NCBI GenBank assembly: GCA_036786925.1 | Contig: DAIQQI010000002.1 | Coordinates: 1 to 34,576 of the forward strand | Direction of reading: 5' to 3' | DNA: 34,576 nucleotides | Source: Steroidobacteraceae bacterium | GTDB lineage: Bacteria; Pseudomonadota; Gammaproteobacteria; Steroidobacterales; Steroidobacteraceae | Shown: in pieces, positions 95-34,576 of the stretch | Numbering within the stretch: position 1 is the stretch's first letter | Layout: every line of letters begins with the position of its first letter | Translations under genes and position numbers: made by a program | The notes under the pieces: generated by a model | Seen by the model: only the letters and a program-made list of their open reading frames with translations | Databases searched by the model: none | What the model was told of the DNA's origin: nothing

Positions 95-1096
95 ATGATG
101 ACCACGCCACCCGCTGCGGCAATGGCGGCAGCCGTTTTTCTCTTGCTGCTGCTCGGCATGACGCGAGCCGTTCCGGCCGCCGGCTATCAGCCGCTAAAGG
201 TGCCCGCGTCAAAGGGAGATTCGGAGATAAGCGCAATTGTCTGGAGTCCGTGCGCCGGCGCGGGGGCCACCGTGCCGCTTGGCCCTTACGTGATACAGGG
301 AACAAGGAACTGCGCCATTGCAGGCAACTCGCTGCCGCTTATCGTCATTTCGCATGGACAAGGCGGTTCGTATCTCGGCCACCACGATACTGCTTCGGCG
401 TTGGCCAATGCGGGCTTCGTGGTTGTTTCCCTGAATCATCCTGGAGATTCCTTCGATGATGACGGCGCGGCGCAGCAGTTGCGAATTTTTGAGTCGCGGC
501 CTCGCGACGTTAGCAGGGTGATTTCATTCATGCTGTCGAACTGGCCGCACCGCCAACAGCTCGACCCAGGAGCGATCGGTGTATTCGGCTTCTCTAGAGG
601 TGGCTATACAGCACTCGCTTTGGCGGGCGCCACGCCAAGCGCCTCGGCGAGCGCCTCGCGATTCTGCCAACCGTGGTGGTCATTTGTGCTTTCGTTGTGC
701 CGTCAACTGGATGCAGACGACGTTCGAATCAGACCCCAAGCCGACCCGCGTGTACGTGCAGTCGTCGTCGTTGATCCTCTTGACCTGTTCGACACGGCGG
801 GCGTACGCAAGGTGCGGGTTCCCGTGCAACTGTGGGCATCAGAATTGGGCGGCGACGGTGTCGCACTCGACCATGTCGAGGCCGTTCGAGCGGCGCTTCC
901 GCGGCCGCCGGAGTACCGCATCGCCAAGGGGGCCGGTCACTTCGCCTATCTGGCACCGTGCTCGCTGGAATTCAAAAAGTCGGAGCCGAAACTCTGCAAA
1001 GATCCCGACGGCTTCAATCGCGAGCTTTGGCACCAGACATTGAATGCCGCTGTCGTCTCATTCTTCAAACGCCAACTGCAGCCAACACCGCGATGA
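95..1096 (+). CDS. Secreted alpha/beta hydrolase (dienelactone hydrolase / PAF-acetylhydrolase-like)
   Basis: ORF 5..1096. The likely start is ATG 95, which gives a signal-peptide-like N-terminus (MMTTPPAAAMAAAVFLLLLLGMTRA). It has an HGQGG motif and a GFSRGG nucleophile elbow (GxSxG). Confidence 0.7.
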   Translation: MMTTPPAAAMAAAVFLLLLLGMTRAVPAAGYQPLKVPASKGDSEISAIVWSPCAGAGATVPLGPYVIQGTRNCAIAGNSLPLIVISHGQGGSYLGHHDTASALANAGFVVVSLNHPGDSFDDDGAAQQLRIFESRPRDVSRVISFMLSNWPHRQQLDPGAIGVFGFSRGGYTALALAGATPSASASASRFCQPWWSFVLSLCRQLDADDVRIRPQADPRVRAVVVVDPLDLFDTAGVRKVRVPVQLWASELGGDGVALDHVEAVRAALPRPPEYRIAKGAGHFAYLAPCSLEFKKSEPKLCKDPDGFNRELWHQTLNAAVVSFFKRQLQPTPR

Positions 1097-1117
1097 GCCG
1101 CTCGTGTGACGGCGCAA

Positions 1118-1366
1118 CTAGGTCTTTATCTCCCGCGCCAGAACCACGCTGACCGACTCCGTGTCTGGATCAAAAACGATGTACGCTTCGCGACGGCGCA
1201 GCTGAGCTAACACCTGGGTAACCTTGTCGTCGAGTGAACTTTCATGCAGGCCATAGTCCGTGCCTTCGCGCAGGATGAAGGACTCAATGACCGCGCGCAG
1301 CGTTGCCGGCGCTAGATCATCGAGCGCCACGCGGATGGGTGCCTGGTCTTCAGTCTGGTCTGGCAT
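1118..1366 (-). CDS. yheU: YheU family protein (UPF0270)
   Basis: 82-aa ORF. The IESFILREGTDYG...KV..V..QL..GEA-type core closely resembles E. coli YheU. Confidence 0.7.
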   Translation of the reverse strand: MPDQTEDQAPIRVALDDLAPATLRAVIESFILREGTDYGLHESSLDDKVTQVLAQLRRREAYIVFDPDTESVSVVLAREIKT

Positions 1367-1443
1367 GATTGTCAGACTATAATCACCTTATGTGTGGGAC
1401 CGGGCAACAAGCGCGTTTCTTTGCAAGCGCTTACGCTTAGACG

Positions 1444-1863
1444 ATGAACGCGACACGACCAGCGGGATACTCAGGCACTCCACTCGCCAAAAAGCTCGGA
1501 TATCGCGACGGTAATCGCGTGTTTCTGCTGACCGCGCCAAGGAATTACCGCGCACTCGTGGACCCTTTGCCGGCAGGTATTCTGTTCGAAAAATCGCTCG
1601 GCGCGACGACCGATCTGGTCCACGCGTTCCTCACGGATAAAGCCGAGCTTGGTAAGTTTCTGAAATCAGCTCGCCAAACGCTGAAGCCCGACGCGAGCGT
1701 CTGGGTATCCTGGCCGAAGAAGTCATCGAAAGTGCCGACGACGATCACCGAAGACACGATTCGCGAGCTGGCGTTGCCGTTAGGTATGGTCGACATCAAG
1801 GTTTGCGCGGTCGATGACACCTGGTCCGGTCTGAAGCTGGTCATACGCAAGGCGCTGCGTTGA
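1444..1863 (+). CDS. DUF3052 domain protein
   Basis: 139-aa ORF starting at ATG 1444. The N-terminal GYSGTPLAKKLG motif and the overall length are typical of DUF3052 (recalled, not searched). Confidence 0.55.
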   Translation: MNATRPAGYSGTPLAKKLGYRDGNRVFLLTAPRNYRALVDPLPAGILFEKSLGATTDLVHAFLTDKAELGKFLKSARQTLKPDASVWVSWPKKSSKVPTTITEDTIRELALPLGMVDIKVCAVDDTWSGLKLVIRKALR

Positions 1864-1868
1864 GCTCC

Positions 1869-2819
1869 ATGCTCAAACGGCCGCCGGTCTGGATCGCGTT
1901 AGCGCTTGTTGCGGCGCTGGTGTGGGTAGCGGCCGAGTATCGCGCGGACATGAATCGCGCCTATGCGCGCGTGCGCGCCAGCGGCACGGTCATCGCATCG
2001 CCTTACGGCGACATCGAATACACCTCGGGCGGTTCCGGCCCTCCTGTGCTGGTGATTCATGGCAGCGGCGGCGGCTACGACCAGGGCGAACTGATGGTGC
2101 GTGCGGTGCTCGGCGAGCAATTCCACTGGATTGCGCCGTCGCGCTTTGGGTACTTGCGCTCGACGTTCCGTGCCGGCGCTACGTTTGACGACCAGGCGCA
2201 TGCGTATGCGTATCTTCTCGATAAGCTGGGCATCAGGAAGGTCGCGGTCGTCACTTTGTCCCACGGCGGACCGTCGGCCTTGCTGTTCGCCGCCCTGCAT
2301 CCTGAGCGCGTGTCGTCACTGACGCTCATTTCCACAGGCGTAGCGGCATCGACCGACCCGAATCAATCACAGGCGAATCAGAAGGGCGACATGCTGAAGA
2401 CAATTTTTCAGCATGACTTTTTGTACTGGACAATCTCCCGCGTATTCAAAACGCAGTTGATGGAACTGATGGGAGCTAACAAACAAGTGATCGCGAGCCT
2501 GACGCCGCTGCAGCGCGACCTCGTTGTCCAGATCATCGATTTCATGAATCCGGTCGCGCCGCGCTCAGCCGGTACCGTTTTCGACAACCAGGCGGCCATG
2601 CCCAACGAACGGATCGCCGCGATCCGCGCCCGGACCTTGATCTTCCATGCCGCCGACGATGGGCTGCAGCTCTACCGCAATGCCGAGTACGCCGAGGCCC
2701 ATATCCCGGGCGCAAAACTGGTTCGCTTCGAGCGCGGAGGACATCTGGTCATTTGCATCGAGCAGCGGGTCATCCGCGCGATGACGCAAAAACACATTGC
2801 CGATACGACGGGCGAGTGA
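1869..2819 (+). CDS. Alpha/beta hydrolase, membrane-anchored
   Basis: ORF 1860..2819. ATG 1869 is preferred because the TTG at 1860 overlaps the upstream stop. It has an N-terminal TM helix, an HGSGGG oxyanion motif and an LSHGG nucleophile elbow. Confidence 0.75.
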   Translation: MLKRPPVWIALALVAALVWVAAEYRADMNRAYARVRASGTVIASPYGDIEYTSGGSGPPVLVIHGSGGGYDQGELMVRAVLGEQFHWIAPSRFGYLRSTFRAGATFDDQAHAYAYLLDKLGIRKVAVVTLSHGGPSALLFAALHPERVSSLTLISTGVAASTDPNQSQANQKGDMLKTIFQHDFLYWTISRVFKTQLMELMGANKQVIASLTPLQRDLVVQIIDFMNPVAPRSAGTVFDNQAAMPNERIAAIRARTLIFHAADDGLQLYRNAEYAEAHIPGAKLVRFERGGHLVICIEQRVIRAMTQKHIADTTGE

Positions 2820-2971: not shown

Positions 2972-3244
2972 ATGCCCAGATACGTCATTGAACGAGAGAT
3001 CCCGGGTGCCGGAAAGCTAACAGCCGCTGAGCTGCAGGGCATCTCCCAGAAATCCTGTGGAGTGTTGCAGGGAATGGGGCCGAAGATCCAATGGGTCGAG
3101 AGCTTTGTCACGGACGACAAGGTCTACTGCGTCTACATCGCGCCCAACGAAGCGGCGGTGCGTGAGCATGCACAGAAGGGCGGATTCCCGGCGAACAAGG
3201 TTTCCCAGGTTCGCAACGTCATCAGCCCGACTACCGCAGAGTAG
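2972..3244 (+). CDS. DUF4242 domain protein
   Basis: ORF 2963..3244. ATG 2972 gives the MPRYVIEREIPG N-terminus typical of the family, with AAGGA 7-8 nt upstream. Confidence 0.6.
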   Translation: MPRYVIEREIPGAGKLTAAELQGISQKSCGVLQGMGPKIQWVESFVTDDKVYCVYIAPNEAAVREHAQKGGFPANKVSQVRNVISPTTAE

Positions 3245-3358: not shown

Positions 3359-3844
3359 ATGAAGATTCCCAACTTGCGAATATTCGCGATACGAGTTCTG
3401 CTGGCAATTGCCGCAATCACCGGCGCCTCCGGCGCCGCGGCCGAGAATTTGGTTCCCGCGGGTTTCCAGGGGAAGTGGGTGCCCGCCAAGGCGGCCTGTA
3501 CGTCGCCAGTTGCCGTATTGATCACCGCTGATCGGTTAACGCTGGTCAATGGCAACGACCGCGAAGCGCTCGGTGGCATCGAAATGGCCGGCCCCGGATA
3601 CTTCGCCCCCGACTACAGCGGCATCATGGCCGTGCTGATCACCGAATTCACCGGCCAGCAGCCATTGACTGCAACCTTCAATGTCGGGGAAAAGAAGGGC
3701 GTTGCCCAAGTCGATTTCGCGCCCGTCATGCCGGGCGCATCTAACGCACAGCTCAGGGCGTACAACGCCCGCATTTCGAAACTCAACCTCGCGAAGCGGT
3801 ATCCGTTGAATGCGGTGCCGCTCAAGAGGTGCCCGCGCGGATAG
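3359..3844 (+). CDS. Hypothetical secreted protein
   Basis: ORF 3347..3844. ATG 3359 is preceded by GAGG. The signal peptide is MKIPNLRIFAIRVLLAIAAITGASGAAA. I recognise no family. Confidence 0.5.
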   Translation: MKIPNLRIFAIRVLLAIAAITGASGAAAENLVPAGFQGKWVPAKAACTSPVAVLITADRLTLVNGNDREALGGIEMAGPGYFAPDYSGIMAVLITEFTGQQPLTATFNVGEKKGVAQVDFAPVMPGASNAQLRAYNARISKLNLAKRYPLNAVPLKRCPRG

Positions 3845-3869
3845 GGTGCCGTTAGGATCTGGAGGACTC

Positions 3870-4200: not shown

Positions 4201-5151
4201 ATGGTCGACAAGAAAATCATCGCAGTCGTAGGCGCCACGGGGGCGCAGGGCGGCGGGCTGGTGCGCGCAATCCTGGCCGATCCGAACGGCGGGTTCATAG
4301 CGCGCGCCATTACCAGAAACGCCAGTTCTGAAAAGGCCCAGGCACTTGCCAGGGCGGGCGCTGAGGTCGTCGCTGCTGACATCGACGACCAGGCAAGCCT
4401 GGCGGCGGCGCTGAAGGGCGCCTACGGCGCCTACTTCGTAACGTTTTTTTGGGAGCATTTTTCGCCCGAGAAAGAGCAGGCGGAAATTCGCACCATGGCT
4501 GCCGCGGCGAAGGCCGCGGGCCTCAAGCATGTCATCTGGTCGACACTCGAAGACTCGCGCCAGTGGATCCCGCTGTCGGACAACCGCATGCCGACGTTGA
4601 TGGGCAAGTACAAGGTTCCGCACTTCGACGCCAAAGGCGAATCTAACAAATTCTTCACCGAGATGGGCGTACCCACGACGTTCCTGTACACGTCGTTCTA
4701 CTGGGACAACCTGATCGGCTTCGGCATGGGGCCGAAGAAGGGCCCGGACGGCAAGCTTGCCTTCACATTGCCGATGGGCGACAAGAAATTGCCGGGCATG
4801 GCTGCTGAGGACATTGGCCGGTGTGCATACGGCATCTTCAGGAAGGGTTCGGAGTACATCGGCAAGAGCGTCGGCATCGCCGGCGAGCACCTGACCGGCA
4901 ACCAGATGGCCGATGCCCTGTCCCAGGCGTTAGGGCAGGACGTGCACTACAACGCGGTGACTCCGGAGATGTATCGAAGCTTCGGCTTTCCGGGCGCCGA
5001 TGACCTCGGCAACATGTTCCAGTTCAATCGCGATTTCGCGGAGATGTTTTGCAGTGCGCGCAGCGTGGACCTTTCCCGCGCGCTGAATCCGTCGCTGCAG
5101 ACCTTCAGGAAATGGCTGGCGGAGAACAAGTCTCGCATCCCGCTGGAGTAG
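4201..5151 (+). CDS. NmrA family NAD(P)-binding protein
   Basis: 316 aa. It has an N-terminal Rossmann motif (IAVVGATGAQGGGLV) and NmrA-like length and layout. Confidence 0.8.
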   Translation: MVDKKIIAVVGATGAQGGGLVRAILADPNGGFIARAITRNASSEKAQALARAGAEVVAADIDDQASLAAALKGAYGAYFVTFFWEHFSPEKEQAEIRTMAAAAKAAGLKHVIWSTLEDSRQWIPLSDNRMPTLMGKYKVPHFDAKGESNKFFTEMGVPTTFLYTSFYWDNLIGFGMGPKKGPDGKLAFTLPMGDKKLPGMAAEDIGRCAYGIFRKGSEYIGKSVGIAGEHLTGNQMADALSQALGQDVHYNAVTPEMYRSFGFPGADDLGNMFQFNRDFAEMFCSARSVDLSRALNPSLQTFRKWLAENKSRIPLE

Positions 5152-5163: not shown

Positions 5164-5682
5164 ATGAACTGGCATACGAAACGTGCTGCGTCTGGCATGG
5201 TGCTGGCGATGTTAGTGGTTGCACAAGCTTCCGCCTCGGAGGCGGACGAGGCCGCGATTCGGGCGCTGCAAGCGCGACAGGCGGCCGCCTGGAACGCGCA
5301 TGACGCGACAGCGTACGCAAACCTGTTCGCGCCGGACGGCGATGTCGTCAACGTGCTGGGCTGGTGGTGGCGGGGGCGTGCGGAGATTCAAAGCAAGCTC
5401 TCCGACGCGTTCGCGTGGGTGTTCCGCGACAGCAAGCTCACGATCACCGACGTGCACTCGCGTTTTCCCGATCGGACGACGGCCATCGTGCATGTGCGCT
5501 GGACGATGGATGGAGCCAAGGTGCCGCCCGGAGCGCCGACGCCGCCGCGCGAGGGTATCCAGTTGCAGGTGCTGCGCAAAGCTAACGGTCAATGGCTGAT
5601 CGCGAGCTTCCAGAACACGAACAGCATTCCCGAGACGCCATTTCCGAAAGGTCCGCCGCCGGCACCAGGCGCCACGCGATAA
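5164..5682 (+). CDS. SgcJ/EcaC family (NTF2-like, DUF4440) protein with signal peptide
   Basis: 172 aa with a signal peptide. The AWNAHDA.AYA.LF..DGD.V...G core is typical of SgcJ/EcaC. Confidence 0.6.
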   Translation: MNWHTKRAASGMVLAMLVVAQASASEADEAAIRALQARQAAAWNAHDATAYANLFAPDGDVVNVLGWWWRGRAEIQSKLSDAFAWVFRDSKLTITDVHSRFPDRTTAIVHVRWTMDGAKVPPGAPTPPREGIQLQVLRKANGQWLIASFQNTNSIPETPFPKGPPPAPGATR

Positions 5683-5696: not shown

Positions 5697-7235
5697 ATGG
5701 TGACAACACTCGCAGAAATTCTGCCGCAAGCCGCGCGCAAGCATAAAGACCGCGTTGCGTTGATCGTCGAAGAACGGCAGTTCTCGTTTCGCGAACTGGA
5801 TGCGATGTCCAACCGCGTTGCCAACGGCCTGGCCGCCACGGGCATTCAGCCGGGCGACCGCGTGAGCCTGTTCGGTGCTAACAGCTGGGAGTGGCTTGTC
5901 AGCTACTACGGCATTGTGAAAGCCGGCGCGGTCGTGAACCCGCTTAACACCATGCTCACGGCGGATGAAGTGCGATTTACGGTGACCGACGCGGGTTCCC
6001 GCGCGGTGCTGGCCGCGGCGGACAAAGCCGAGACCCTGCTGCCCCTGAAGGGCGTCGGCAACCTGACAGACCTGGTGTTCTGGGGCGAAGCGCCGGTCGC
6101 GGGGGCCAGGATGTTGAATGACTGGCTGCAGGGCGCCAGCGCGGAATTTACCGCGCCGCGGCGCCAGCCCGCGGACCTCGCCGCCATTTGTTATACGTCG
6201 GGCACGACCGGACGCCCGAAAGGCGCCATGCAGAGTCAGCGATCCGTGATCGGGGCAGCCGTAGGCACTGCGCTGATGTCGGTGCGTACCTCGGAGGATC
6301 GGCTCATCAACGCGCTGCCACTGCCGCATGTGTATGGCAGCTGTGTGTTCAATGCCGCGATGATGGTTGGCTCGATGCTGATCGTTGTTCCGCGCTTCAA
6401 CGAAATCGCCGTCCTCAGTGCCATCCAGCGGCATCGTGTCACGATCATGGACGGCGTACCGACGGCCTACTACTACCTGCTCGCACATCCGGACTTCGAC
6501 AAGTACGATCTTTCGAGCCTGTCCCGCTGCTGGGGAGGCGGTCAAACCTTGCCGGCGGCCAAGGCGCAGGAATTCACGGCGCGCACCGGTTGTGCGGTCT
6601 ACGAAGTCTGGGGCATGACCGAGCTGGCCGGTGCCGCGACGGCGAATCCAGCGTATGGACCTAACAAGTCTGGAACCATCGGCATTCCGTATCCCGGCAA
6701 CGCGTTCCGTATTGTGGACGTGGATGACGCCAACAGGGAAATGCCGCTGGGCGAACGCGGCGAGCTGATGTTTCGCGGCCCGATGGTGATGCAGGGCTAC
6801 TACAACAATCCGAAAGGCACGGCCGAGACCATCCGGCCCGATGGCTGGTTGCACACGGGCGACATTGCAACGATGGACGAAGATGGCTATGCGACGATCG
6901 TCGATCGCAAGAAGGACATGATCATCACGGCCGGATTCAACGTCTATCCCGCTGAAATTGAACGCGTGCTGTGCATGCACCCGGCGGTGGCGCTCGCGGC
7001 GGTCGGCAGCGTGCCGGACGAAGCGAAGGGTGAACTGGCCAAGGCCTACGTAATCCTGAAGCCGGGCGCCGAGGTGTCACGAGCCGACCTCGTGGCCCAT
7101 TGCCGCGCGCAACTGGCGGCCTACAAGGTCCCGCGCGCGCTGCAGTTTGTCTCGTCGGTGCCCACGACATCTTCGGGCAAGATCATGCGGCGGATGTTGA
7201 AAGACGTCGACGACGGAACGCTGACGGTCAATTGA
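5697..7235 (+). CDS. AMP-dependent acyl-CoA synthetase/ligase
   Basis: ORF 5592..7235. ATG 5697 is preferred (MVTTLAEILPQAARKH). It has the AMP-binding motif YTSGTTGRPKGA, GWLHTGD, and a C-terminal SSGKIMRR. Confidence 0.85.
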   Translation: MVTTLAEILPQAARKHKDRVALIVEERQFSFRELDAMSNRVANGLAATGIQPGDRVSLFGANSWEWLVSYYGIVKAGAVVNPLNTMLTADEVRFTVTDAGSRAVLAAADKAETLLPLKGVGNLTDLVFWGEAPVAGARMLNDWLQGASAEFTAPRRQPADLAAICYTSGTTGRPKGAMQSQRSVIGAAVGTALMSVRTSEDRLINALPLPHVYGSCVFNAAMMVGSMLIVVPRFNEIAVLSAIQRHRVTIMDGVPTAYYYLLAHPDFDKYDLSSLSRCWGGGQTLPAAKAQEFTARTGCAVYEVWGMTELAGAATANPAYGPNKSGTIGIPYPGNAFRIVDVDDANREMPLGERGELMFRGPMVMQGYYNNPKGTAETIRPDGWLHTGDIATMDEDGYATIVDRKKDMIITAGFNVYPAEIERVLCMHPAVALAAVGSVPDEAKGELAKAYVILKPGAEVSRADLVAHCRAQLAAYKVPRALQFVSSVPTTSSGKIMRRMLKDVDDGTLTVN

Positions 7236-7836: not shown

Positions 7837-8202
7837 TCAGTTCAAATCGACGTGCGTGACGACCGCATGCTCATCACCCTTGAGTGGCCTTGCGGGCGTC
7901 ACGCTCAGCAGGCGGGCGGAGAAGTCGTGGCATTCCCGCGGCTCCACGATCAGCGACTGGCCGTCGAAATTCACTTTCGCCGCAACCGCGCTAGCTTCGG
8001 ACTTGACGCAAACCCGGATGCGTTCGAGGTTTTCACTGGTGTGCAATGGGATGACCTTGTCGTCGGTCAGCACCACGCGTCCGGGCGTCAGCGCCGCGCC
8101 GACCTGATCGACGGCCGATGGTGTGTTAGTCACGAAGAAACTGACGGCTAACCCCACCACCAGGAGAACCGCGACAACACCCAGGATTTTGGATCCAGAC
8201 AT
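7837..8202 (-). CDS. Hypothetical membrane-anchored protein
   Basis: 121-aa ORF with an N-terminal TM helix. I recognise no family. It lies directly upstream of the flavodoxin-fold gene on the same strand. Confidence 0.45.
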   Translation of the reverse strand: MSGSKILGVVAVLLVVGLAVSFFVTNTPSAVDQVGAALTPGRVVLTDDKVIPLHTSENLERIRVCVKSEASAVAAKVNFDGQSLIVEPRECHDFSARLLSVTPARPLKGDEHAVVTHVDLN

Positions 8203-12115: not shown

Positions 12116-12541
12116 ATGAAACCAATACTCATTTTCTGGCCGATGATCGTCATGGCCGGGCTGACCCTGGTCGTCGCAATTCGCATGTATACGACGCGTG
12201 TCGCGGAGATGCGGGAACGACGTGTGCGCCCGCAACTGCTCGCAACGCGGCAGGAAGCGGAAAAGCAGCTGCACAACACCCAGGGTTCCGACAACTTCCG
12301 CAACCTGTTCGAAATCCCGGTGCTTTTTTATGCGATCTGCCCGGTCCTGTTCCTGACCGGCAACGTCACGACGCTGCAGTTATCGCTCGCCTGGCTCTTT
12401 GTGCTAACAAGAGTGATCCACAGTTTCATCCATGTCACCTACAACAAGGTCATGCACCGCTTCAATGCCTTCGTACTCGGCATGGCTGCGCTGTTCGCGA
12501 TGTGGATCACGCTGGCCGTGCAGCTCGCGCGCGCCAGCTGA
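12116..12541 (+). CDS. MAPEG family membrane protein
   Basis: ORF 12011..12541. ATG 12116 has GGGGAGG upstream. It has about 4 TM helices and the F.NLFE.PVLFY motif. Confidence 0.6.
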   Translation: MKPILIFWPMIVMAGLTLVVAIRMYTTRVAEMRERRVRPQLLATRQEAEKQLHNTQGSDNFRNLFEIPVLFYAICPVLFLTGNVTTLQLSLAWLFVLTRVIHSFIHVTYNKVMHRFNAFVLGMAALFAMWITLAVQLARAS

Positions 12542-25845: not shown

Positions 25846-26907
25846 TCAGCGGCTGGCCGCCAGCCTGGCAGTTTCTTCCTGTATACGCTGTTCGAGCAGC
25901 TTTGCAAACGCGGGGTGCTCGGAAACCCCCTTTTCCTGGAACCGGTACTTGAGACCTAACAAATCTTGCTTGAGCTTGGCCTGCAGGCCGAAACTCGCGA
26001 TCACCGCAGGCACGACCAGGACATCGTAACCGCGTGCCTGGGCGTCGGTGATCATCTTGCGCAGCTTGCGGACATTGGCTGCGCGGATCGGCTTGAACGC
26101 GTCATCCTGCAGGTTGATCGCCTGCACCTCGGCAAAGCCGCCCTGGGCTTTCACTTTCACTGCGTGCGCATTGAGAAAGGCGAGATCGGGCACGTTGTCT
26201 TCGTAGTCCTCGGGACCATGCGCAACGATCATCACCGCTTCGCGTGCCGGATTTTTCGACAGCTCCCGCGCGTGATCCAGCAGCATCTGCGTAAACAGCG
26301 GGCTGTCATCAAACGTATGCGCCATGACCAGCTTGAGCTTGGTCCTGACCTTGGGCACCGACAGATACTCCGCCGCGGTGGGCCAGCCGAAGATGTACTC
26401 CCACTGGCGATAAATCGTGTTGTATTTCGAGACCAGCGGCGGCACGAGAATGATGGTCTTCGCGCCGGCCTTGGTCAGGTCGTCGACCGCCGACTGCAGC
26501 GGCTCCGAATGCGTCATCGCCATGCCGATACCGATGCTGGTCGGATACTTCGCGCCGATGGGCTCTACGGCGCGCTTGAAGATGCGGTCGCCGGTTTCGC
26601 CAACGCCGTGGGTCAGCACCAGCACGCCGACATTGCCGCGCAGTTGCGGGGCGCTGACGTTCCACTGGTAGTCCGGCCCCATGCCGCCCATGCTCATGTG
26701 AATTTCCATGTCGGTCATGGCGCGGTACTGAGGAATTGCCTTCTTGAGCGCGGCGATCAGTTCCGGCGTCATGTCGGCGTGGCTGTGCGCCATGATCATC
26801 TTGCGGCCGTCAGGCGTGCTGCCGCCGGCCGGCGGCGCGGGTGCGGCGCCTGCGGTTGCGGTCATCAACAGCACGATAGCTAACAAAAAAATCGTTACAG
26901 TCTTCAC
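25846..26907 (-). CDS. Signal-peptide-bearing double CbiX/CbiK-like (class II chelatase fold) protein
   Basis: 353 aa with a GTG start at 26907, overlapping the ATPase stop (GTGA). The signal peptide is MKTVTIFLLAIVLLMTATAGA. It has two chelatase-like halves, each with a beta-strand-HG motif (VLVLTHGVGE and VMIVAHGPED). Confidence 0.5.
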   Translation of the reverse strand: MKTVTIFLLAIVLLMTATAGAAPAPPAGGSTPDGRKMIMAHSHADMTPELIAALKKAIPQYRAMTDMEIHMSMGGMGPDYQWNVSAPQLRGNVGVLVLTHGVGETGDRIFKRAVEPIGAKYPTSIGIGMAMTHSEPLQSAVDDLTKAGAKTIILVPPLVSKYNTIYRQWEYIFGWPTAAEYLSVPKVRTKLKLVMAHTFDDSPLFTQMLLDHARELSKNPAREAVMIVAHGPEDYEDNVPDLAFLNAHAVKVKAQGGFAEVQAINLQDDAFKPIRAANVRKLRKMITDAQARGYDVLVVPAVIASFGLQAKLKQDLLGLKYRFQEKGVSEHPAFAKLLEQRIQEETARLAASR

Positions 26908-27590
26908 GTGGGCGCTCCTTCACTGACAACCCGGCCATCGACCAGCTTCACGACCCGGTCCACGACCGACACCATGCTGGCGTCATGCGTCACCATCACC
27001 GTGGCGACCTTGTGCGCGTGGCACTGCTGCGCCAGCAGCTCGACGATTTCGCGGCCGCGCCCCTGGTCCAGCATCGAGGTGGGCTCGTCCACCAGCAGCA
27101 GCGCCGGGTTGCCCATCAGCGCGCGGGCAATGCCGACACGCTGGCGCTCGCCACCCGACAGCTGTGCCGGCTTGCGAGTGGCGCGGTTCTCCATGCCAAC
27201 CTCGGCTAACAGACGCAGCGCCTCAGTGCGCGCCTTGCCGTGCGTGCCTTCGCCGTTCAGGTGCGCTACCAGCAGCAGCTGGTCGAGCGCGGTCAGCGAC
27301 GGCACGAGGTTCGACTGCTGAAACACGAAGCCGATGCGTTGCCGGCGGATCCGCGCCAGCTCGGAGTCGCTCAGATCGCCGAGGTTCACGCCACCCACGG
27401 TGACGCTGCCACTGCTGGCGCGCCGCAACCCGCCGCAGATCGCCAGCAGGCTCGACTTGCCGGCGCCGGACGGCCCCATGATCGCGACCATTTCGCCGGC
27501 CGAGACGTGGATATTCACGTTGTTGAGTATCGTCGCCTGTGCCTCGCCGTCGCCTAACAACAGCGAGATGTTCTGCGCCGCGAGCGTCAT
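26904..27590 (-). CDS. ABC transporter ATP-binding protein (MacB/LolD/FtsE type)
   Basis: ORF 26904..28172, but the real start is ATG 27590, which overlaps the permease stop (ATGA). It has Walker A (GPSGAGKSS), the signature LSGGERQR, and Walker B (LLLVDEPT). Confidence 0.9.
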   Translation of the reverse strand: MTLAAQNISLLLGDGEAQATILNNVNIHVSAGEMVAIMGPSGAGKSSLLAICGGLRRASSGSVTVGGVNLGDLSDSELARIRRQRIGFVFQQSNLVPSLTALDQLLLVAHLNGEGTHGKARTEALRLLAEVGMENRATRKPAQLSGGERQRVGIARALMGNPALLLVDEPTSMLDQGRGREIVELLAQQCHAHKVATVMVTHDASMVSVVDRVVKLVDGRVVSEGAPT

Positions 27591-29466: not shown

Positions 29467-30251
29467 GGCGTCTTGACGCTGCCTCCGTCCAGTGTGATCG
29501 AGGTGCCGGTGGTGTGGCCGGCGAGTTCCGATGCCAGGAACAACACCTGCGCCGCCACCTGTTCGGCGCTGCCCAGTTTGCGCAGCGCAGATTTCGCGAG
29601 AAACGGCGCCTCGACATCAGCCACGGTACGCTTCTCCTGCGCAGCGATGTCAGCCATCTGCTGGTCCCAGCGGCTCGAGCGGACCGGTCCGGGGTTCACG
29701 GCGTTGATGCAAATCCCCTGCGGCCCCACTTCCTCCGCCAGTCCACGCACGATGGCTAACAAGGCCGAATTCGCCGCCGCCCCCGGCAGCATCCTGGGCT
29801 CCGGCAATTTCGCCGAGTTGCCGACGATCACCACAATGCGCCCGGCGCGACGCGCCTGCATGCCGGGCAGCGCAGCCCGCAGCAGCCGAATCGTTCCGAA
29901 CAACTTCAATTCGAGATTACGCTTCCAGTCGGCGTCGGATAAGTCCGTAAAAATACCGCCCTGTGCATTGCCGGCTGCGCACACCAGCACATCGATGGGT
30001 CCGCCTTGTCGCACGGCGCCGGCAATCGCCGCATCGGTGCTGGCCGCGTCGGTCAGGTCAGATTGAATGCCGTCGACGACCTGGCCGCCGGCGCTGGTCA
30101 GTTCGCGCACCAGCGCCGCGAGTTTTTCCAGCGACCGGCCTAACAAACTGAGGCGCGCGCCTTCGGTCGCGAACGCGCGGGCGCAGGCTGCGCCCAGGCC
30201 GCCGGTCGCGCCGGCGATCAGCACATGCCGGTCGCGTAATTTAAGATCCAT
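29463..30251 (-). CDS. SDR family oxidoreductase
   Basis: ORF 29463..30353. ATG 30251 has AAGGAG upstream. It has the cofactor motif GATGGLG, an NAG motif, and a classical SDR length of 262 aa. Confidence 0.85.
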   Translation of the reverse strand: MDLKLRDRHVLIAGATGGLGAACARAFATEGARLSLLGRSLEKLAALVRELTSAGGQVVDGIQSDLTDAASTDAAIAGAVRQGGPIDVLVCAAGNAQGGIFTDLSDADWKRNLELKLFGTIRLLRAALPGMQARRAGRIVVIVGNSAKLPEPRMLPGAAANSALLAIVRGLAEEVGPQGICINAVNPGPVRSSRWDQQMADIAAQEKRTVADVEAPFLAKSALRKLGSAEQVAAQVLFLASELAGHTTGTSITLDGGSVKTP

Positions 30252-30265
30252 GCTCAGGGGCTCCT

Positions 30266-31279
30266 TCAGCGGCTGCGGGCGAGGGCGGCGCCGGCGCCTA
30301 ACGCGCGCAGCTTGGCGCGCGCCAGGTCGGCGGGCAGCGGCGCCATGCCGCAATTGGTACAGGGTACAAGTCTTTCACGATCCACGTGTTTGAGCGCGGC
30401 GCCGATATTGGCCGCAACCTCGGCCGCGGTTTCCAGCTTTCCCGGCAGGACTTCGACCGCGCCGACCAGCAGCTCCTTGTCTTTCAGCAGCCGCAGCACC
30501 TCATGCGGCACTTTGGAGCCGGCGAACTCGACCGATACCGCCTGCACGCTGCTCGCGTTGATCCAGGGAAAAATGGCCTCGTATTGCCGCCAGCTGTCGC
30601 CCAGGGTGCTCTTCCACTTGATGTTAGCTTCGATGCCGTAGCCGTAGCAGATATGCACGACCGTCTTCGCCTTCAGGCCGCGCATCGCGCGCTCCAGCGC
30701 CGGCAGGCCCCAGTCGCGCACCTCGTCGATGAAAACGTTGAAGGCCGGTTCGTCGAACTGGATCACGTCCGCGCCCGCGGCCTCGATCTGCAGCGCTTCC
30801 TGGTTGAGCAGCTCCGCAAACTTCATGGCCATGTCGGCGCGCGAGCTGTAGTAACTGTTAGCAATCGTGTCGCAGATCGTCATCGGGCCGGGCAGGGTGA
30901 TCTTCAGTTGCCGCGCTGTCTGTGCCCGCATATAGGCGGCATCGGCGACGTGCACCGGCGACGGGCGTGCCAGCGCGGCAACCACCGTGGGCACTTCCGC
31001 CTCGTAACGGTTGTTGCGAATGCCCATGCGCGTCTTGCGGTTCCAGTCGATGCCCTGGATGTTCTCGAGGAAACCGTGCACGAAGTGCACGCGAAACTGC
31101 TCGCCATCGCCCACGATGTCGATCCCGGCGGCTTCCTGTTCGCGCAGCCACTCGAGTGCGGCTCGTTGCTTGCCCTGCTGCAACGCGTCGCCGGCGAGAC
31201 GCCAGGGCGCCCAGATCTTTTCGGGCTCGGCCAGCCAGTCCGGTTTTGGAAGGCTGCCGACGGTGGTGGTTTTGAGCAC
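30266..31279 (-). CDS. Single-barrel cobalamin-independent methionine synthase family protein ('core' MetE-like)
   Basis: 337 aa with a GTG start at 31279. TTTVGSLPKP, GDGEQ.R, DEPA, HICYG and NCGM are blocks of the MetE C-terminal barrel type, including the Zn-ligand contexts. It is the first gene of the operon. Confidence 0.75.
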   Translation of the reverse strand: MLKTTTVGSLPKPDWLAEPEKIWAPWRLAGDALQQGKQRAALEWLREQEAAGIDIVGDGEQFRVHFVHGFLENIQGIDWNRKTRMGIRNNRYEAEVPTVVAALARPSPVHVADAAYMRAQTARQLKITLPGPMTICDTIANSYYSSRADMAMKFAELLNQEALQIEAAGADVIQFDEPAFNVFIDEVRDWGLPALERAMRGLKAKTVVHICYGYGIEANIKWKSTLGDSWRQYEAIFPWINASSVQAVSVEFAGSKVPHEVLRLLKDKELLVGAVEVLPGKLETAAEVAANIGAALKHVDRERLVPCTNCGMAPLPADLARAKLRALGAGAALARSR

Positions 31280-31458: not shown

Positions 31459-31468
31459 CTGTGGGTGA

Positions 31469-31535: not shown

Positions 31536-31536
31536 C

Positions 31537-32436
31537 ATGGCTGAATTTTCGATAAAGGCCACCGCCAAGGCGACTGGCCTGACCGTCGAGACCCTCAGGG
31601 CCTGGGAACGGCGTTACGAGGCCGTACTGCCCAGTCGTGATGTCGCGGGCAGGCGCGGCTACTCGTCTGCTGACATCGCGCGCCTGCGGTTGCTGCGGTC
31701 CGCAACCGAGTTGGGGCACCCCATTTCGAAGGTCGCAAAGATGCCGCCGGATGAATTGGCGAAGCTGGTCAGCGATGCCGGAGGTTTGGCGCGGATTACC
31801 GCGCGCGGTCAGAGCTTCGTGCAACGCGCGCTCGATGCCGCGGAGCACTCGGATTCGATCGGCGTCGAAGAGACACTGATGTCGGCGATGGCAGTGCTGC
31901 CGCCGCACGAAGTAGCGGGCAGCGTGATCACTCCGCTGCTGATCGAAGTTGGCGATCGCTGGCACCGCGGCCAGTTGCGTATCTCCCAGGAACACATGGT
32001 CACCGACATCGTACGGCGCCTGGTGACCAATGCGTCGCGCAGCTATTTCATCGCGGAAAACGCGCCTTGCCTGATGCTGACGACCTTGAGCGGCGAGCGT
32101 CACGAGCTGGGGCTCATGCTGTGCCTGTGGCTTGCTGCAGCGCGCCGCTGCCGTACCCATTACCTCGGCCCGGACACCCCCGTGCCTGACATCGTGGAGT
32201 ACGCGCGTGACGTCGAGGCGGACGCGGTTCTGCTGTCGATGGTCATGTCCGAGATGGACGTCCCGGCCAGGACGCAGCTCGGCCTGCTGGCCGCGCAATT
32301 GCAGCCGAATACCGAGATCTGGGTTGGCGGTCGGGCCGCGCAGACCATGCGCGAAGACCAGGTGCCGCTGGGCGTGGTCTTGCTGCCGTCGCTAACAGAC
32401 TACGAGCAGCGGCTCGACACGCTTATGGTTAAGTAG
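31537..32436 (+). CDS. CarH/LitR-type MerR family regulator with cobalamin-binding domain
   Basis: ORF 31486..32436. ATG 31537 has AAGGTG upstream. It has an N-terminal MerR HTH (ATAKATGLTVETLRAWERRY). The helical cap carries Wx9EH (W-HRGQLRISQ-EH). The Rossmann B12 domain has GERHELG (ExHxxG), LLSMV (SxL) and VGG. Confidence 0.75.
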   Translation: MAEFSIKATAKATGLTVETLRAWERRYEAVLPSRDVAGRRGYSSADIARLRLLRSATELGHPISKVAKMPPDELAKLVSDAGGLARITARGQSFVQRALDAAEHSDSIGVEETLMSAMAVLPPHEVAGSVITPLLIEVGDRWHRGQLRISQEHMVTDIVRRLVTNASRSYFIAENAPCLMLTTLSGERHELGLMLCLWLAAARRCRTHYLGPDTPVPDIVEYARDVEADAVLLSMVMSEMDVPARTQLGLLAAQLQPNTEIWVGGRAAQTMREDQVPLGVVLLPSLTDYEQRLDTLMVK

Positions 32437-32512
32437 CGCGCGTCAACCGACAACGCGCTCGCGCGTTTCCCTGATAGCGGTAGAATCGGGCTGCCGCTCA
32501 GGGAGGCGACCT

Positions 32513-34210
32513 ATGGCACGCAGCAGCAAGATTGCGCAACTCGCAATAGCCGGATTTTTGGCCTTGGTCGCCGGTTGTGGCGGCGGTGGCGGCGCGAGTT
32601 CGCCACCACCCCCGGTACCGCCGCCGCCGATCAGCAAGATCGAGGCGTATCGTTTTCTCAATCAGGCCACTTTCGGCGCAACCGAAGCCGAGGCCCAGCG
32701 CCTGATCGCGTTAGGTGACAGCACCAACAGCTACTCGCGCTGGCTGGACGAACAATTCGCCAAGGCGCCTTCGACCCAGTTGCCGACCGTAGCCGCAGCG
32801 GTACCCAACCCGATTCCGGTCGGCTTCAATATCGGCTCGCTGCAGGCGCAACGGGTCGAGGCCTGGTTCCAGAATTCCCTGAATGGCGACGACCAGTTGC
32901 GCCAGCGCGTGGCCTTCGCGCTGTCCGAGATCATGGTTGTGTCGCAGGTCGGTGCGCTGGCGAATTTCCCGTTGTCGCTGGCTGATTATTACGACATGTT
33001 AGCGCGCGACGCCTTCGGCGATTATCGCAAGCTGCTCGAAGACGTGACGCTGCACGTGTCGATGGGCATTTATCTGTCGATGCTGGGCAACCAGAAGCCG
33101 AATCCGACGCTCAATATCCGGCCCGACGAAAACTACGCGCGCGAACTGATGCAGCTGTTCAGTATCGGCCTGGTCGAACTCAACACCGACGGCACGCCGC
33201 GCCTCGTGAACAGCCAGGCGGTTTCAACCTATGACCAGTCGATCATCGAAGGCTTTGCTAACGTGTACACGGGCTGGCGCTACGCCGGTGGCACATCGTT
33301 CGCCAATGCGGGGCGCGCCACGTTGACCAACCAGGTGCAGCCGATGCAGGCCTACGCGGAGCAGCACTCCACCGGTACCAAGAAGCTGTTGAGTTACGCC
33401 GGCGCCGCGGTGACGACAATTCCTGCGGGGCAGACGCCGGCCCAGGATCTGGCCAATGCGCTCGACAACATCTTCAATCACCCCAATGTCGGGCCGTTCA
33501 TCTCGAAACAGCTGATCCAGAAACTGGTGACCAGCAATCCAAGCCCGGCGTACGTCGCACGCGTTGCCGCCGTCGTCAACAGCGACAGCCAGGGCCGCCG
33601 CGGCAACCTGCAATCGGTCATCCGCGCCATTTTGCTGGATAGCGACGCGCGCTCGGCGCCAACTGCGCAGACCGCGGGTAAGATCAAGGAGCCGCTGCTG
33701 CGGCTGACCCAGCTGTGGCGCGCCTACGGCGCGCGCGCCGCGAGCGGCAAATATACGGCTGCGGCGACCGGCGGTCCGTCGGCGACGTTCGCGCAGGGGC
33801 CGCTGCAATCCGGCTCCGTGTTCAATTTCTTCAGTCCGTTTTATGCGCCCACCGGCGAGATTGCCAACCAGAACCTGGTCGCGCCCGAGATGCAGCTGGC
33901 GACTGAGTACAACAACACGCAGTTCATCAATTTCTTCTGGGTGCAGGCTATCGCCCGCACCACGGCGCAGACCGGCCTGGGAGCGGATGTGGTGGTCATC
34001 GACACCACGCAGGAACAGGCGGTCGCCAATGATTCCGAAGCCCTGGTGAACCGGGTCGCGGAAAAATTGTTAGGCGGGCAGATATCCGCTGAACTGAAAG
34101 CAAGCGTCAAGACCCAGGTCGATCGGACCGCGACCACCGTGCCTAACACCCGGGTGGCCGACGCGATATACCTGATCTCTACAGCGCCTGAATTCGTGCT
34201 GCAGCGCTAA
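32513..34210 (+). CDS. DUF1800 domain lipoprotein
   Basis: 565 aa. GGAGG lies upstream. It has a lipobox (LVAGCGG) and a Pro-rich linker. The FLNQATFG and NENYARELMELFT-like (NYARELMQLFSIG) blocks are typical of DUF1800. Confidence 0.8.
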   Translation: MARSSKIAQLAIAGFLALVAGCGGGGGASSPPPPVPPPPISKIEAYRFLNQATFGATEAEAQRLIALGDSTNSYSRWLDEQFAKAPSTQLPTVAAAVPNPIPVGFNIGSLQAQRVEAWFQNSLNGDDQLRQRVAFALSEIMVVSQVGALANFPLSLADYYDMLARDAFGDYRKLLEDVTLHVSMGIYLSMLGNQKPNPTLNIRPDENYARELMQLFSIGLVELNTDGTPRLVNSQAVSTYDQSIIEGFANVYTGWRYAGGTSFANAGRATLTNQVQPMQAYAEQHSTGTKKLLSYAGAAVTTIPAGQTPAQDLANALDNIFNHPNVGPFISKQLIQKLVTSNPSPAYVARVAAVVNSDSQGRRGNLQSVIRAILLDSDARSAPTAQTAGKIKEPLLRLTQLWRAYGARAASGKYTAAATGGPSATFAQGPLQSGSVFNFFSPFYAPTGEIANQNLVAPEMQLATEYNNTQFINFFWVQAIARTTAQTGLGADVVVIDTTQEQAVANDSEALVNRVAEKLLGGQISAELKASVKTQVDRTATTVPNTRVADAIYLISTAPEFVLQR

Positions 34211-34226
34211 AGGACGGAGAACAGTC

Positions 34227-34576
34227 ATGAACTACAATCGACGCAAGTTTCTCCGCAGGGTTTCCGCCGGCGGCCTGGCCTACGCGCTGTCGCGCACACC
34301 GGGTACCGTTTGGGGCCAGATGGCCGGCGCCGGCGGCTTCGGCGAGTATCGCGCCCTGGTCTGCGTATTCATGTTCGGCGGCAACGATTCCTGGAACATG
34401 GTCGTGCCGCGCACCACGGCCGAGTACAACGCCTACAACAGCGCGCGCGGCGGTGACCAGGGCGTCGGCGCCGGGCTGGCGGTGCCGTTAGCTTCGCTTC
34501 TGCCGATCGACCCGATCGGCACTACCGGCGCGCCTTTCGGATTTCATCCGAGCATGACCGGCGTGCAGCAGCTGTT
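34227..34576 (+). CDS. DUF1501 domain protein (5' partial, runs off the window)
   Basis: ATG 34227 has GGAG upstream. It has a TAT signal (NRRKFLRRVSAGGLA) and the FGGNDS.N block typical of DUF1501. This is the usual partner of DUF1800. Confidence 0.75.
   Translation, partial: MNYNRRKFLRRVSAGGLAYALSRTPGTVWGQMAGAGGFGEYRALVCVFMFGGNDSWNMVVPRTTAEYNAYNSARGGDQGVGAGLAVPLASLLPIDPIGTTGAPFGFHPSMTGVQQL

Follow-up and report, generated by a model that had tools for sequence, protein, structure and literature searches.

Analysis of the word composition of a 34,576-bp contig from a Steroidobacteraceae bacterium (hereinafter the window, i.e. the contig in its entirety) revealed that a short, asymmetric word, CTAACR (where R is a purine; YGTTAG on the complementary strand), is hyper-abundant not only in this contig but across the sampled DNA of one uncultured Steroidobacteraceae-like gammaproteobacterial clade, including flanks that are not syntenic with the window. 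In these uncultured, free-living Gammaproteobacteria of soil, sediment or wetland, a copy is found roughly every 300-500 bases, about 100 times as often as in related bacteria. The evidence described here points to selection or molecular drive acting on a recognition site, for which a 'self' tag comparable to the DNA uptake sequences of Haemophilus and Neisseria seems, tentatively, to be the best fit.

A machine recount of the window yielded 71 copies of CTAAC/GTTAG, 42 on the plus strand and 29 on the minus strand; an initial annotation, made by eye from the letters, had arrived at exactly this number and at the same distribution of the following base, namely, A in 48 copies, G in 22, C in a single copy (at 8148) and T in none. 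Altogether, 71 of the 83 occurrences of CTAA continue with C, and the sister words are as scarce as had been reported (CTAAA 6, CTAAT 4, CTAAG 2, GTAAC 23), the only deviation being TTAAC with 8 copies rather than about 6; the G+C content is 63.0%, not the approximately 65% estimated visually. Under Markov models of the window, CTAAC is the strongest outlier among the 5-mers and CTAACA among the 6-mers, with 48 observed copies of the latter against expectations of 4.4, 3.4 and 11.0 from the models of order 1, 2 and 3, respectively. Under the maximal-order model, no word longer than the CTAACA-type core stands out, so the core is 5-6 bases long. Shuffling synonymous codons within each gene (300 replicates), a procedure that preserves the proteins along with the already inflated usage of TTA and CTA, gave 9.4±2.9 coding copies (at most 20 in any of the 300) against the 63 observed (z = 18.5), and the expectation from shuffling the order of codons was 8.4±2.8. 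Both the k-mer count against a Markov null and the codon-preserving shuffle had been proposed in the initial annotation, and the excess it claimed survives them: comparable counts in shuffled genes, an inflated hand count and equally frequent CTAACY, the outcomes that it had named as speaking against the claim, were all not found.

The ingroup evidence consists of roughly 170 kb of DNA centred on one syntenic region and its flanks. Contigs nearly identical to the window are present in the JGI samples 3300027831 and 3300004778/79/82, and a syntenic locus from a gammaproteobacterial metagenome-assembled genome (MAG), denoted L014, with ~90% nucleotide identity to the window, contains 1.66 copies per kb, again with only a purine following CTAAC. 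Word-rich loci, with 0.6-3.9 copies per kb, come from independent NCBI, JGI, ENA and Logan assemblies (L014, L081, L101, L103-L107, L111-L112 and L115-L118); their FabH is 76-96% identical to that of the window, and the source names point to MAGs of Steroidobacteraceae or other Gammaproteobacteria. The MAGs that contain the word include GCA_043769085.1, GCA_033579075.1 and the JANNVI01 bin VAR_34_metabat_508. Sampling graded by FabH identity to the window gave the following densities of CTAAC:

FabH identity 85-86% (L103-L107): 2.3-3.5 per kb
FabH identity 83% (L115, L116): 1.1 and 0.6 per kb
FabH identity 78% (L117): 3.9 per kb
FabH identity 76% (L118): 0.94 per kb
FabH identity 75% (L108-L110, including a 4.39-Mb genome in ERZ26867466): 0.14-0.15 per kb

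About 100 loci of other bacteria, many of them at 60-70% G+C, are at the background level; those with more than 60% G+C mostly contain 0-0.2 copies per kb, the highest value being 0.56. These background loci include homologues of the AMP-ligase (mostly distant ones from unrelated phyla) and homologues of a lineage-restricted protein at 50-59% identity. In almost all positive loci, CTAACA ranks first among the hexamers, alone or tied (in L117, it comes just after CCTAAC), and its pooled density of 1.53 per kb in the ingroup exceeds that in the G+C-matched outgroup, 0.013 per kb, 122-fold; for CTAACG, the respective values are 0.83 and 0.071 per kb, a 12-fold excess. In the non-syntenic flanks of L103 and L105, the density of the word equals that in the syntenic parts. 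No dialects were detected in sister lineages: all positive loci use CTAACR, and the top k-mers of the outgroup show nothing comparable.

In its full form, (R)(S)CTAACR, this is a compact double-stranded DNA word and not a feature of codons, peptides, RNA or a repeat element, in line with the asymmetric DNA-level word of the initial annotation. Within the genes of the window, the word occupies every one of the four frames in which it does not create a stop codon (NYG-TTA-G, 31-33 copies; NCT-AAC-R, 17; CTA-ACR, 9-10; Y-GTT-AGN, 5-8), and, pooled over four ingroup genomes, its density is 2.26 per kb in coding DNA and 2.95 per kb in intergenic DNA. Relative to transcription, 75 copies are sense and 102 antisense, mixed numbers that follow from the number of codon-compatible sites in each frame. 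Successive copies are oriented at random (111 direct and 121 inverted among 232 neighbour pairs), and the local split between the plus and minus strands is 41:29 in the window, 17:21 in L103, 21:24 in L105 and 22:30 in L106. The sequence logo of 205 copies contains information only at positions -2 (R) and -1 (S), in CTAAC itself and at +6 (R), for a total of ~12 bits (6-7 bp); S is found at -1 in 179 of the 205 copies (P=2e-16), and A and G at +6 are in a ratio of about 2:1. This logo shows no extended motif and no helically phased A/T flanks of the kind seen in uptake signal sequences (USS).

Several more conventional identities of the word can be discarded. A search of the window found no repeat family that is built on or contains CTAACR, and the flanks of the copies are unrelated beyond positions -2 and -1, so the rejection of a tandem repeat, a repetitive extragenic palindrome or miniature inverted-repeat transposable element (REP/MITE) and a CRISPR array by the initial annotation was correct. 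An RNA element was rejected given that no Rfam family, the cobalamin riboswitch included, reaches the threshold in the window and that the copies are found in both orientations relative to transcription. A eukaryotic intron branch point (CTAAC, as in a G+C-rich fungus) is ruled out by the long intact open reading frames (ORFs), the bacterial Pfam domains, the operons and the in-frame copies. Association with terminators or inverted pairs is essentially absent, with 9 close inverted pairs among the 232 neighbour pairs and one clear terminator-like case.

CTAACR overrides codon preference. In the ingroup, NCT-AAC-R occupies 26% of the codon-compatible sites, compared to 1.3% in the outgroup; CTA-ACR is present at 16% of the Leu-Thr sites, YG-TTA-G at 14.8% of the sites at which Leu is preceded by L, V, M, P, S, A or T and followed by a G-initial codon, and Y-GTT-AGN at 7% of the compatible sites, against 0% in the outgroup in each of these three cases. 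Within the word lie 83 of the 128 TTA codons of the ingroup; in the outgroup, TTA accounts for 1 of 1295 Leu codons.

The copies are also spaced more evenly than expected by chance. The coefficient of variation of the gaps in the window is 0.72, compared to 0.99±0.12 under random placement (P=0.002), and the values for L105, L106 and L103 are 0.71, 0.77 and 0.96, respectively (pooled P=0.0008); binned by 1 kb, the copies show under-dispersion (index 0.53-0.70), and very short and very long gaps are both rarer than random. The gaps in the window range from 21-22 bp to 1.9 kb, in close agreement with the 22 bp to 1.9 kb noted previously, and the longest motif-free stretches are indeed those at 8153-10069 and 30862-32391. 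We make no claim that these stretches are foreign islands, given that gaps of 1.9 and 1.5 kb are within the Poisson expectation (maximum-gap P=0.76). The 1.9-kb stretch at 8153-10069, which encompasses the usp-like and AAA_33/APH kinase-like genes, has a G+C fraction of 0.599 compared to 0.630 and is motif-free in L014 as well; it may be a more recent acquisition, the size of the gap alone being not significant.

Codon alignments of 16 ortholog families from four ingroup genomes (the window, L103, L105 and L106, which are 72-79% identical at the nucleotide level and are the genomes used in all site-sharing comparisons, L014 being compared separately) and two outgroups showed that CTAACR is conserved at synonymous sites and, at the same time, is still gained independently in each lineage. 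The copies of the window are kept in 52-57% of the cases, compared to 16-24% for phase-matched control hexamers, and where the encoded amino acids are identical, 57-89% of the words persist, versus 26-35% of the controls (P<0.03 for 12 of the 12 ordered genome pairs). The amino acid identity at the sites of the motif differs little from the baseline of the alignments. Across the four genomes aligned, 19, 9, 2 and 7 sites are found in one, two, three and four genomes, respectively. At the sites of the word, the outgroup contains CTG or CTC in place of TTA, CCG-AAC in place of CCT-AAC and CTG-ACG in place of CTA-ACA, that is, ordinary G+C-rich codons, so for many of the gains, two or three substitutions were necessary, for example, CTG to TTA together with a change in the neighbouring position. 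These alignments, a check suggested in the initial annotation to look for lineage-specific synonymous changes, reveal both shared sites and lineage-private gains from ordinary synonymous codons. Hexamers one mismatch away from the word show no depletion in the ingroup when compared to the outgroup. The even spacing, the constraint on synonymous sites, the lack of depleted precursors and the restriction to one clade together show that CTAACR is actively maintained, which favours a role as a recognition site, without deciding between uptake and modification. Of the three options considered in the initial annotation, then, the watermark falls, and both the binding, uptake or segregation site and the modification target are still viable.

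The window is ordinary bacterial DNA that encodes an AMP-ligase, FabH, an amine oxidase, an ABC/FtsX transporter, a short-chain dehydrogenase/reductase (SDR), a CarH-like MerR-B12 regulator and DUF1800, among others. The copies are listed below with the strand of the word, its form, its location (with the strand of the gene in parentheses), the frame and, where determined, the sharing among genomes.

508..513, minus: CTAACG, a/b-hydrolase gene (+), Y-GTT-AGN
1207..1212, plus: CTAACA, intergenic
1778..1783, minus: CTAACG, DUF3052 gene (+), NYG-TTA-G
1897..1902, minus: CTAACG, a/b-hydrolase gene (+), NYG-TTA-G
2476..2481, plus: CTAACA, a/b-hydrolase gene (+), NCT-AAC-R
3017..3022, plus: CTAACA, intergenic or small ORF 2921-3244
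3741..3746, plus: CTAACG, ORF165 (+), NCT-AAC-R
3850..3855, minus: CTAACG, intergenic
4643..4648, plus: CTAACA, NmrA gene (+), NCT-AAC-R
4928..4933, minus: CTAACG, NmrA gene (+), NYG-TTA-G
5210..5215, minus: CTAACA, SnoaL/DUF4440 gene (+), NYG-TTA-G
5582..5587, plus: CTAACG, SnoaL/DUF4440 gene (+), NCT-AAC-R
5878..5883, plus: CTAACA, AMP-ligase gene (+), NCT-AAC-R
6661..6666, plus: CTAACA, AMP-ligase gene (+), NCT-AAC-R; conserved in L014
7317..7322, minus: CTAACG, intergenic or 5' part of the ORF ending at 8151
8124..8129, minus: CTAACA, ORF251 (+), Y-GTT-AGN; conserved in L014
8148..8153, plus: CTAACC, the only copy without R; its TAA terminates ORF 7396-8151
10069..10074, minus: CTAACA, AAA_33 kinase-like gene (+), Y-GTT-AGN; conserved in L014
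10366..10371, minus: CTAACG, intergenic; conserved in L014
10599..10604, plus: CTAACA, Host_attach/baeRF gene (+), CTA-ACR; L014 has CTGACG
11457..11462, minus: CTAACG, Zn-ADH gene (-), NCT-AAC-R
11860..11865, minus: CTAACG, Zn-ADH gene (-), CTA-ACR
12404..12409, plus: CTAACA, MAPEG gene (+), CTA-ACR; conserved in L014
13114..13119, plus: CTAACA, He_PIG gene (-), NYG-TTA-G; shared with L103
13567..13572, minus: CTAACG, He_PIG gene (-), NCT-AAC-R; private to the window lineage
13880..13885, minus: CTAACA, He_PIG gene (-), CTA-ACR; in all four ingroup genomes
15007..15012, plus: CTAACG, ORF341 (-), NYG-TTA-G; in all four ingroup genomes
15258..15263, plus: CTAACA, ORF341 (-), Y-GTT-AGN; in all four ingroup genomes
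15338..15343, minus: CTAACA, ORF341 (-), CTA-ACR; in all four ingroup genomes
15442..15447, plus: CTAACA, ORF341 (-), NYG-TTA-G; window lineage only
16677..16682, plus: CTAACA, FabH gene (-), NYG-TTA-G; shared with L106
16767..16772, plus: CTAACA, FabH gene (-), NYG-TTA-G; in all four ingroup genomes; outgroup CTG/CTC
17700..17705, plus: CTAACA, ORF188 (+), CTA-ACR; shared with L105
17922..17927, minus: CTAACA, intergenic
18518..18523, minus: CTAACA, ORF180 (+), NYG-TTA-G
18714..18719, plus: CTAACA, intergenic
19650..19655, minus: CTAACG, ORF243 (+), NYG-TTA-G
20018..20023, plus: CTAACA, amine oxidase gene (-), NYG-TTA-G; private
20282..20287, plus: CTAACG, amine oxidase gene (-), NYG-TTA-G; private
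20480..20485, minus: CTAACA, amine oxidase gene (-), NCT-AAC-R; in all four ingroup genomes
20711..20716, minus: CTAACA, amine oxidase gene (-), NCT-AAC-R; private
21458..21463, plus: CTAACA, ORF331 (-), NYG-TTA-G; in all four ingroup genomes
21824..21829, plus: CTAACA, ORF331 (-), NYG-TTA-G; shared with L105, L106
22370..22375, plus: CTAACA, ORF331 (-), NYG-TTA-G; shared with L103
22391..22396, minus: CTAACA, ORF331 (-), NCT-AAC-R; shared with L103, L105
22998..23003, minus: CTAACG, lactonase-like gene (-), NCT-AAC-R; shared with L105, L106
23392..23397, minus: CTAACA, lactonase-like gene (-), CTA-ACR; shared with L105, L106
23973..23978, plus: CTAACA, DUF1838 gene (+), CTA-ACR; private
24106..24111, plus: CTAACA, DUF1838 gene (+), NCT-AAC-R; shared with L105; outgroup CCG-AAC
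24818..24823, plus: CTAACG, Yip1 gene (-), NYG-TTA-G
25055..25060, plus: CTAACG, Yip1 gene (-), NYG-TTA-G
25694..25699, plus: CTAACA, Yip1 gene (-), NYG-TTA-G
25956..25961, plus: CTAACA, ORF353 (-), NYG-TTA-G; shared with L106
26880..26885, plus: CTAACA, ORF353 (-), NYG-TTA-G
27206..27211, plus: CTAACA, ABC ATPase gene (-), NYG-TTA-G; shared with L106
27554..27559, plus: CTAACA, ABC ATPase gene (-), NYG-TTA-G; shared with L106
27910..27915, plus: CTAACA, FtsX permease gene (-), NYG-TTA-G; shared with L106
28627..28632, plus: CTAACA, FtsX permease gene (-), NYG-TTA-G; shared with L106
28815..28820, plus: CTAACA, Amdase-like gene (-), NYG-TTA-G; private
29756..29761, plus: CTAACA, SDR gene (-), NYG-TTA-G; shared with L105
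30140..30145, plus: CTAACA, SDR gene (-), NYG-TTA-G; private
30298..30303, plus: CTAACG, overlap of SDR and MetE-like ORFs (-)
30622..30627, minus: CTAACA, MetE-like gene (-), NCT-AAC-R; shared with L105
30856..30861, minus: CTAACA, MetE-like gene (-), NCT-AAC-R; private
32392..32397, plus: CTAACA, CarH-like gene (+), CTA-ACR; private
32709..32714, minus: CTAACG, DUF1800 gene (+), NYG-TTA-G
32997..33002, minus: CTAACA, DUF1800 gene (+), NYG-TTA-G
33258..33263, plus: CTAACG, DUF1800 gene (+), NCT-AAC-R
34068..34073, minus: CTAACA, DUF1800 gene (+), NYG-TTA-G
34143..34148, plus: CTAACA, DUF1800 gene (+), NCT-AAC-R
34486..34491, minus: CTAACG, ORF running off the contig end (+), NYG-TTA-G
Outside confident genes: the copies at 1207, 3851, 8148, 10367, 17923 and 18714, plus some near gene ends

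The initial annotation had placed three copies between genes; depending on the gene calls, 6-9 are outside confidently called genes. In the relatives, the TAA within the word doubles as the stop codon of the amine oxidase gene in L103 (3561-3566) and in L105 (9256-9261). At 9256-9281 of L105, between two convergent genes, three overlapping copies (GGCTAACACTCCCAGTGTTAGGCTAACAA) form a hairpin of -10.7 kcal/mol, and the segment 9256-9276 is the sole clear terminator-like inverted pair in the style of USS and of the DNA uptake sequences (DUS). Another region between convergent genes, L103 3565-4069 (~500 bp), contains 5 copies, ~10 per kb or several times the coding density, which suggests that more copies build up in DNA free of protein constraint.

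A few additional observations pertain to the gene content. Many long, spurious plus-strand ORFs over the minus-strand operon at 24555-31417 stop at the TAA of the word, for example, at 26883, 27209, 27557 and 27913. The 422-aa ABC ATPase ORF at 26904-28172 (minus strand) is over-extended; the ortholog in L106 consists of 228 aa, so the true gene spans ~26904-27590. At 30266-32436, the CarH-like MerR/B12-binding regulator is divergent from the MetE-like (Meth_synt_2) operon. A tiny gene for the ribosomal protein Thx (37-60 aa), below the ORF length cut-offs used, is placed at ~16050-16180 (plus strand) by synteny with L111 2021-2143 and sits between FabH and ORF341 in all relatives. Finally, when the window, L103, L105 and L106 are compared to the pooled outgroup, with about one third as much DNA in the ingroup, the most depleted ingroup hexamers are AGAGGG (1 vs 32), AGGAGG (7 vs 76), AAGAGG (5 vs 60) and GGAGGA (ratio 0.30); the depletion of these purine-rich, Shine-Dalgarno-like words may simply mirror phylogeny because the outgroup set is taxonomically mixed.

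What force could have produced such a pattern? A neutral bias of mutation or repair, whereby a context-specific mutator or mismatch repair of the very-short-patch (VSP) type turns near-matches into CTAACR, is compatible with the similar densities in coding and intergenic DNA and with the fact that the differences of L014 at non-shared sites are mostly single transitions (e.g. CTGACG, CCAACA, GCTAG). However, VSP-like conversion is expected to deplete the precursor words, and these are not depleted, with CCAACR at 0.9-1.4 times and CTGACR at 1.1-2.3 times the outgroup level; many gains take 2-3 coordinated changes; heterogeneous mutational input predicts Poisson or over-dispersed spacing, not the under-dispersion observed; and the sites are retained at two to three times the rate of synonymous hexamers matched to them. 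Convergent regain cannot account for the shared sites either because the occupancy is only 7-26%, and, taken together, these observations make a mutational origin quite improbable. An explanation at the level of translation, via the TTA-G codon context, a special tRNA-Leu or hidden off-frame stops (TAA/TAG), might be invoked since 31-33 of the 71 copies are in the NYG-TTA-G frame and each copy puts a stop codon in one off-frame per strand. Yet, intergenic DNA contains the word at an equal density, and the copies take up four frames and both orientations; the stop-containing sisters CTAAT, CTAAG, CTAAA and TTAAC, as well as CTAACY, are not enriched; and the frame distribution tracks the number of compatible sites, with the highest occupancy in NCT-AAC rather than in TTA. 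The intergenic density and the specificity of the flanks already refute this explanation, which strains credulity. An artefact or an engineered watermark has nothing in its favour beyond the oddity of the word and can be given virtually no credence: the word is found in at least 15 contigs from independent studies and assemblers that have diverged to 72-90% nucleotide identity, and the shared and private sites track genome relatedness, so its presence in independent NCBI, ENA, JGI and Logan assemblies excludes this origin. With the mutator or repair and the codon, tRNA or hidden-stop accounts failing, the remaining cause is a force that acts on the whole word at each site: as we infer, either a recognition site is under selection or its transmission is biased (molecular drive).

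Quite possibly, CTAACR is the recognition site of a sequence-specific DNA-handling machine and serves as a dense 'self' tag. In species with uptake sequences, competent cells favour DNA that bears the word, via a specific receptor such as ComP. Under an analogous scenario for CTAACR, a competence receptor would prefer DNA fragments that bear the word, and word-creating mutations would be over-transmitted via transformation and homologous recombination, so that copies would build up wherever the proteins tolerate them, until nearly every fragment of ~0.5 kb contains one; the receptor might read either the bare sequence or a methylated form. Selection on a single copy among thousands is likely to be very weak, and we rank the uptake-like tag first because the properties of USS and DUS match those of CTAACR and because biased uptake directly favours each word-creating mutation; biased uptake together with recombination is the accepted account of the accumulation of USS and DUS (PMC2817400). 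A gene for a TfoX_N-domain protein (window 12432-12893, plus strand; Pfam E=4e-29; 110-153 aa, N-domain only) is located tail-to-tail with the He_PIG gene and is syntenic in L103, L105, L106, L111 and L112. TfoX/Sxy proteins regulate competence in other Gammaproteobacteria, so this gene may be a weak lead to a competence link.

Several points weigh against the uptake-like tag. This short N-domain-only TfoX_N protein is encoded by the only competence-related gene encountered in the fetched loci. The word has only ~12 bits (6-7 bp), compared to 9-12 bp for USS and DUS; it is barely under-represented in coding DNA; no dialects were seen among the positive loci; and any strongly selected recognition site, such as one resembling the highly iterated palindrome HIP1 of cyanobacteria, would give the same statistics. 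The copies are not concentrated in terminators or inverted pairs, unlike about half of the USS and DUS copies (preprint 10.1101/2025.10.24.684340), and uptake sequences are known only from two host-associated families, Neisseriaceae and Pasteurellaceae (10.1101/2025.10.24.684340). It might even be, although here we are more tentative still, that CTAACR represents a third, independently evolved family of uptake or self-recognition words, the shortest one (6-7 bp) and the first in free-living, uncultured soil or sediment Gammaproteobacteria, which may be read in a methylated form.

The main rival of the uptake tag is a methylation-linked, HIP1-like word. In this case, CTAACR/YGTTAG would be recognised by a lineage-specific methyltransferase that modifies N6 of adenine on a single strand, perhaps an orphan enzyme, a Type III Mod, a Type IIL enzyme or one similar to PglX of the bacteriophage exclusion (BREX) system, and dense, even methyl marks would be selected for self marking in defence, for the efficiency of recombination or transformation, for repair or for nucleoid organisation. 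Both GCTAAC and YGTTAG place an A at position 5, the shape of PglX targets (a resemblance only), and conservation of the HIP1 style is seen for CTAACR, as is evenness. Nevertheless, no methyltransferase or defence gene was found in the window or in the fetched flanks; no targets of restriction-modification, BREX or Type III systems are known to be enriched in the host genomes; HIP1 is palindromic and CTAACR is not; and, with thousands of marks, each single one would experience extremely weak selection, which calls for an additional driving force. All this considered, an epigenetic word appears a doubtful, if serious, candidate. Unlikely, in our assessment, is a site for recombination, repair or chromosome maintenance, that is, a Chi-like regulator of RecBCD/AddAB or a word bound by a segregation or organisation protein, with over-representation ensuring that any broken or replicating segment soon meets a copy. 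Asymmetry, over-representation, conservation in core genes and even spacing, all of which CTAACR displays, are expected of Chi-type self markers, and ~59% of the genic copies in the syntenic region are locally on one strand. This skew, however, is weak and confounded with gene orientation and frame availability, the GC skew on the contigs is ~0, and words of the type of the FtsK-orienting polar sequences (KOPS) require a much stronger skew; furthermore, known Chi and KOPS words are far sparser than the 2-4 copies per kb seen here, and all known Chi sequences are G-rich, whereas CTAACR is A+T-rich.

The on/off boundary in the phylogeny is sharp, so the responsible gene should be findable by phylogenetic profiling. 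If the uptake-like tag is the correct interpretation, sequence-biased transformation is not confined to two host-associated families and, should the word be read in its methylated form, the USS/DUS and HIP1 phenomena would be linked mechanistically. On the practical side, CTAACR offers an inexpensive way to bin contigs of this clade and to recognise foreign DNA inside them.

Comparison with the known hyper-abundant words puts these possibilities in perspective. The USS of Pasteurellaceae (AAGTGCGGT and ACAAGCGGT) and the DUS of Neisseriaceae (GCCGTCTGAA and its dialects) are characterized by excess, occurrence in both orientations, spacing more even than random, frame bias, origin by point mutation and spread by recombination (PMC2817400). 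Like these, CTAACR is short, non-palindromic and vastly over-represented in one clade; is present in both orientations, in numbers that seem similar locally, and is spaced more evenly than random; resides inside genes in several frames, with a bias to tolerable codons and peptides; and arises by point mutation rather than by transposition, being shared or turned over among relatives. Unlike them, it lacks a 9-12-bp core or an extended flanking consensus, is A+T-rich in a genome of 63% G+C, is hardly under-represented in genes, was seen in a single form and belongs to free-living rather than host-associated bacteria; it is also denser, with 2-4 copies per kb, compared to ~1 per kb for USS and DUS. 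HIP1 (GCGATCGC) is an 8-bp, G+C-rich palindrome that contains known methyltransferase targets. Among previously described words, it alone exceeds 1 copy per kb in coding as well as non-coding DNA; it is 15-300-fold over-represented and conserved beyond the neutral expectation, which is taken as evidence of selection, with the function unresolved (PMC5861425); it has been tied to methyltransferases, and a 2024 preprint links it to methylation-dependent transformation efficiency. CTAACR resembles HIP1 in reaching a density of at least ~1 copy per kb, whether the DNA is coding or not, and in being conserved beyond the neutral expectation, and differs in being asymmetric, 6-7 bp long and A+T-rich and in coming from a different phylum. 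With Chi and KOPS, it shares asymmetry, over-representation and conservation in core DNA, although no strong strand polarity is seen locally and the density is ten-fold or more higher; the Chi and KOPS words are G-rich, a composition unlike that of CTAACR. Similarly to the motifs of BREX PglX, Type IIL and Type III systems, CTAACR is non-palindromic and 6 bp long, and either strand (GCTAAC or YGTTAG) has an adenine at position 5; PglX makes N6-methyladenine at this position of its targets, which are non-palindromic and 6 bp in length, such as GATCAG and GCTAAT, the latter, the BREX motif of E. fergusonii, being one base away from GCTAAC (PMC11341690). Motifs of such systems are not known to be enriched in their hosts, as CTAACR is, and no such system was found in the fetched DNA. 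A search of the literature consulted found no description of CTAACR/YGTTAG as a bacterial recognition site or hyper-abundant word and nothing relevant on new uptake sequences. We do not assign the word to USS/DUS, HIP1 or Chi, each of which has at least one defining feature that was not seen for CTAACR. The known kinds of genome-wide hyper-abundant short words are few (USS/DUS, HIP1, Chi/KOPS), and each has exposed DNA-handling machinery that distinguishes self from non-self or provides the chromosome with a direction. To judge from its sequence features, CTAACR is probably a new case among such recognition words, and a very strong one, with a ~100-fold excess over relatives and up to a quarter of the compatible codon sites occupied despite the use of the rarest codons, which differs from all known cases in length, composition and placement and comes from an uncultured environmental clade.

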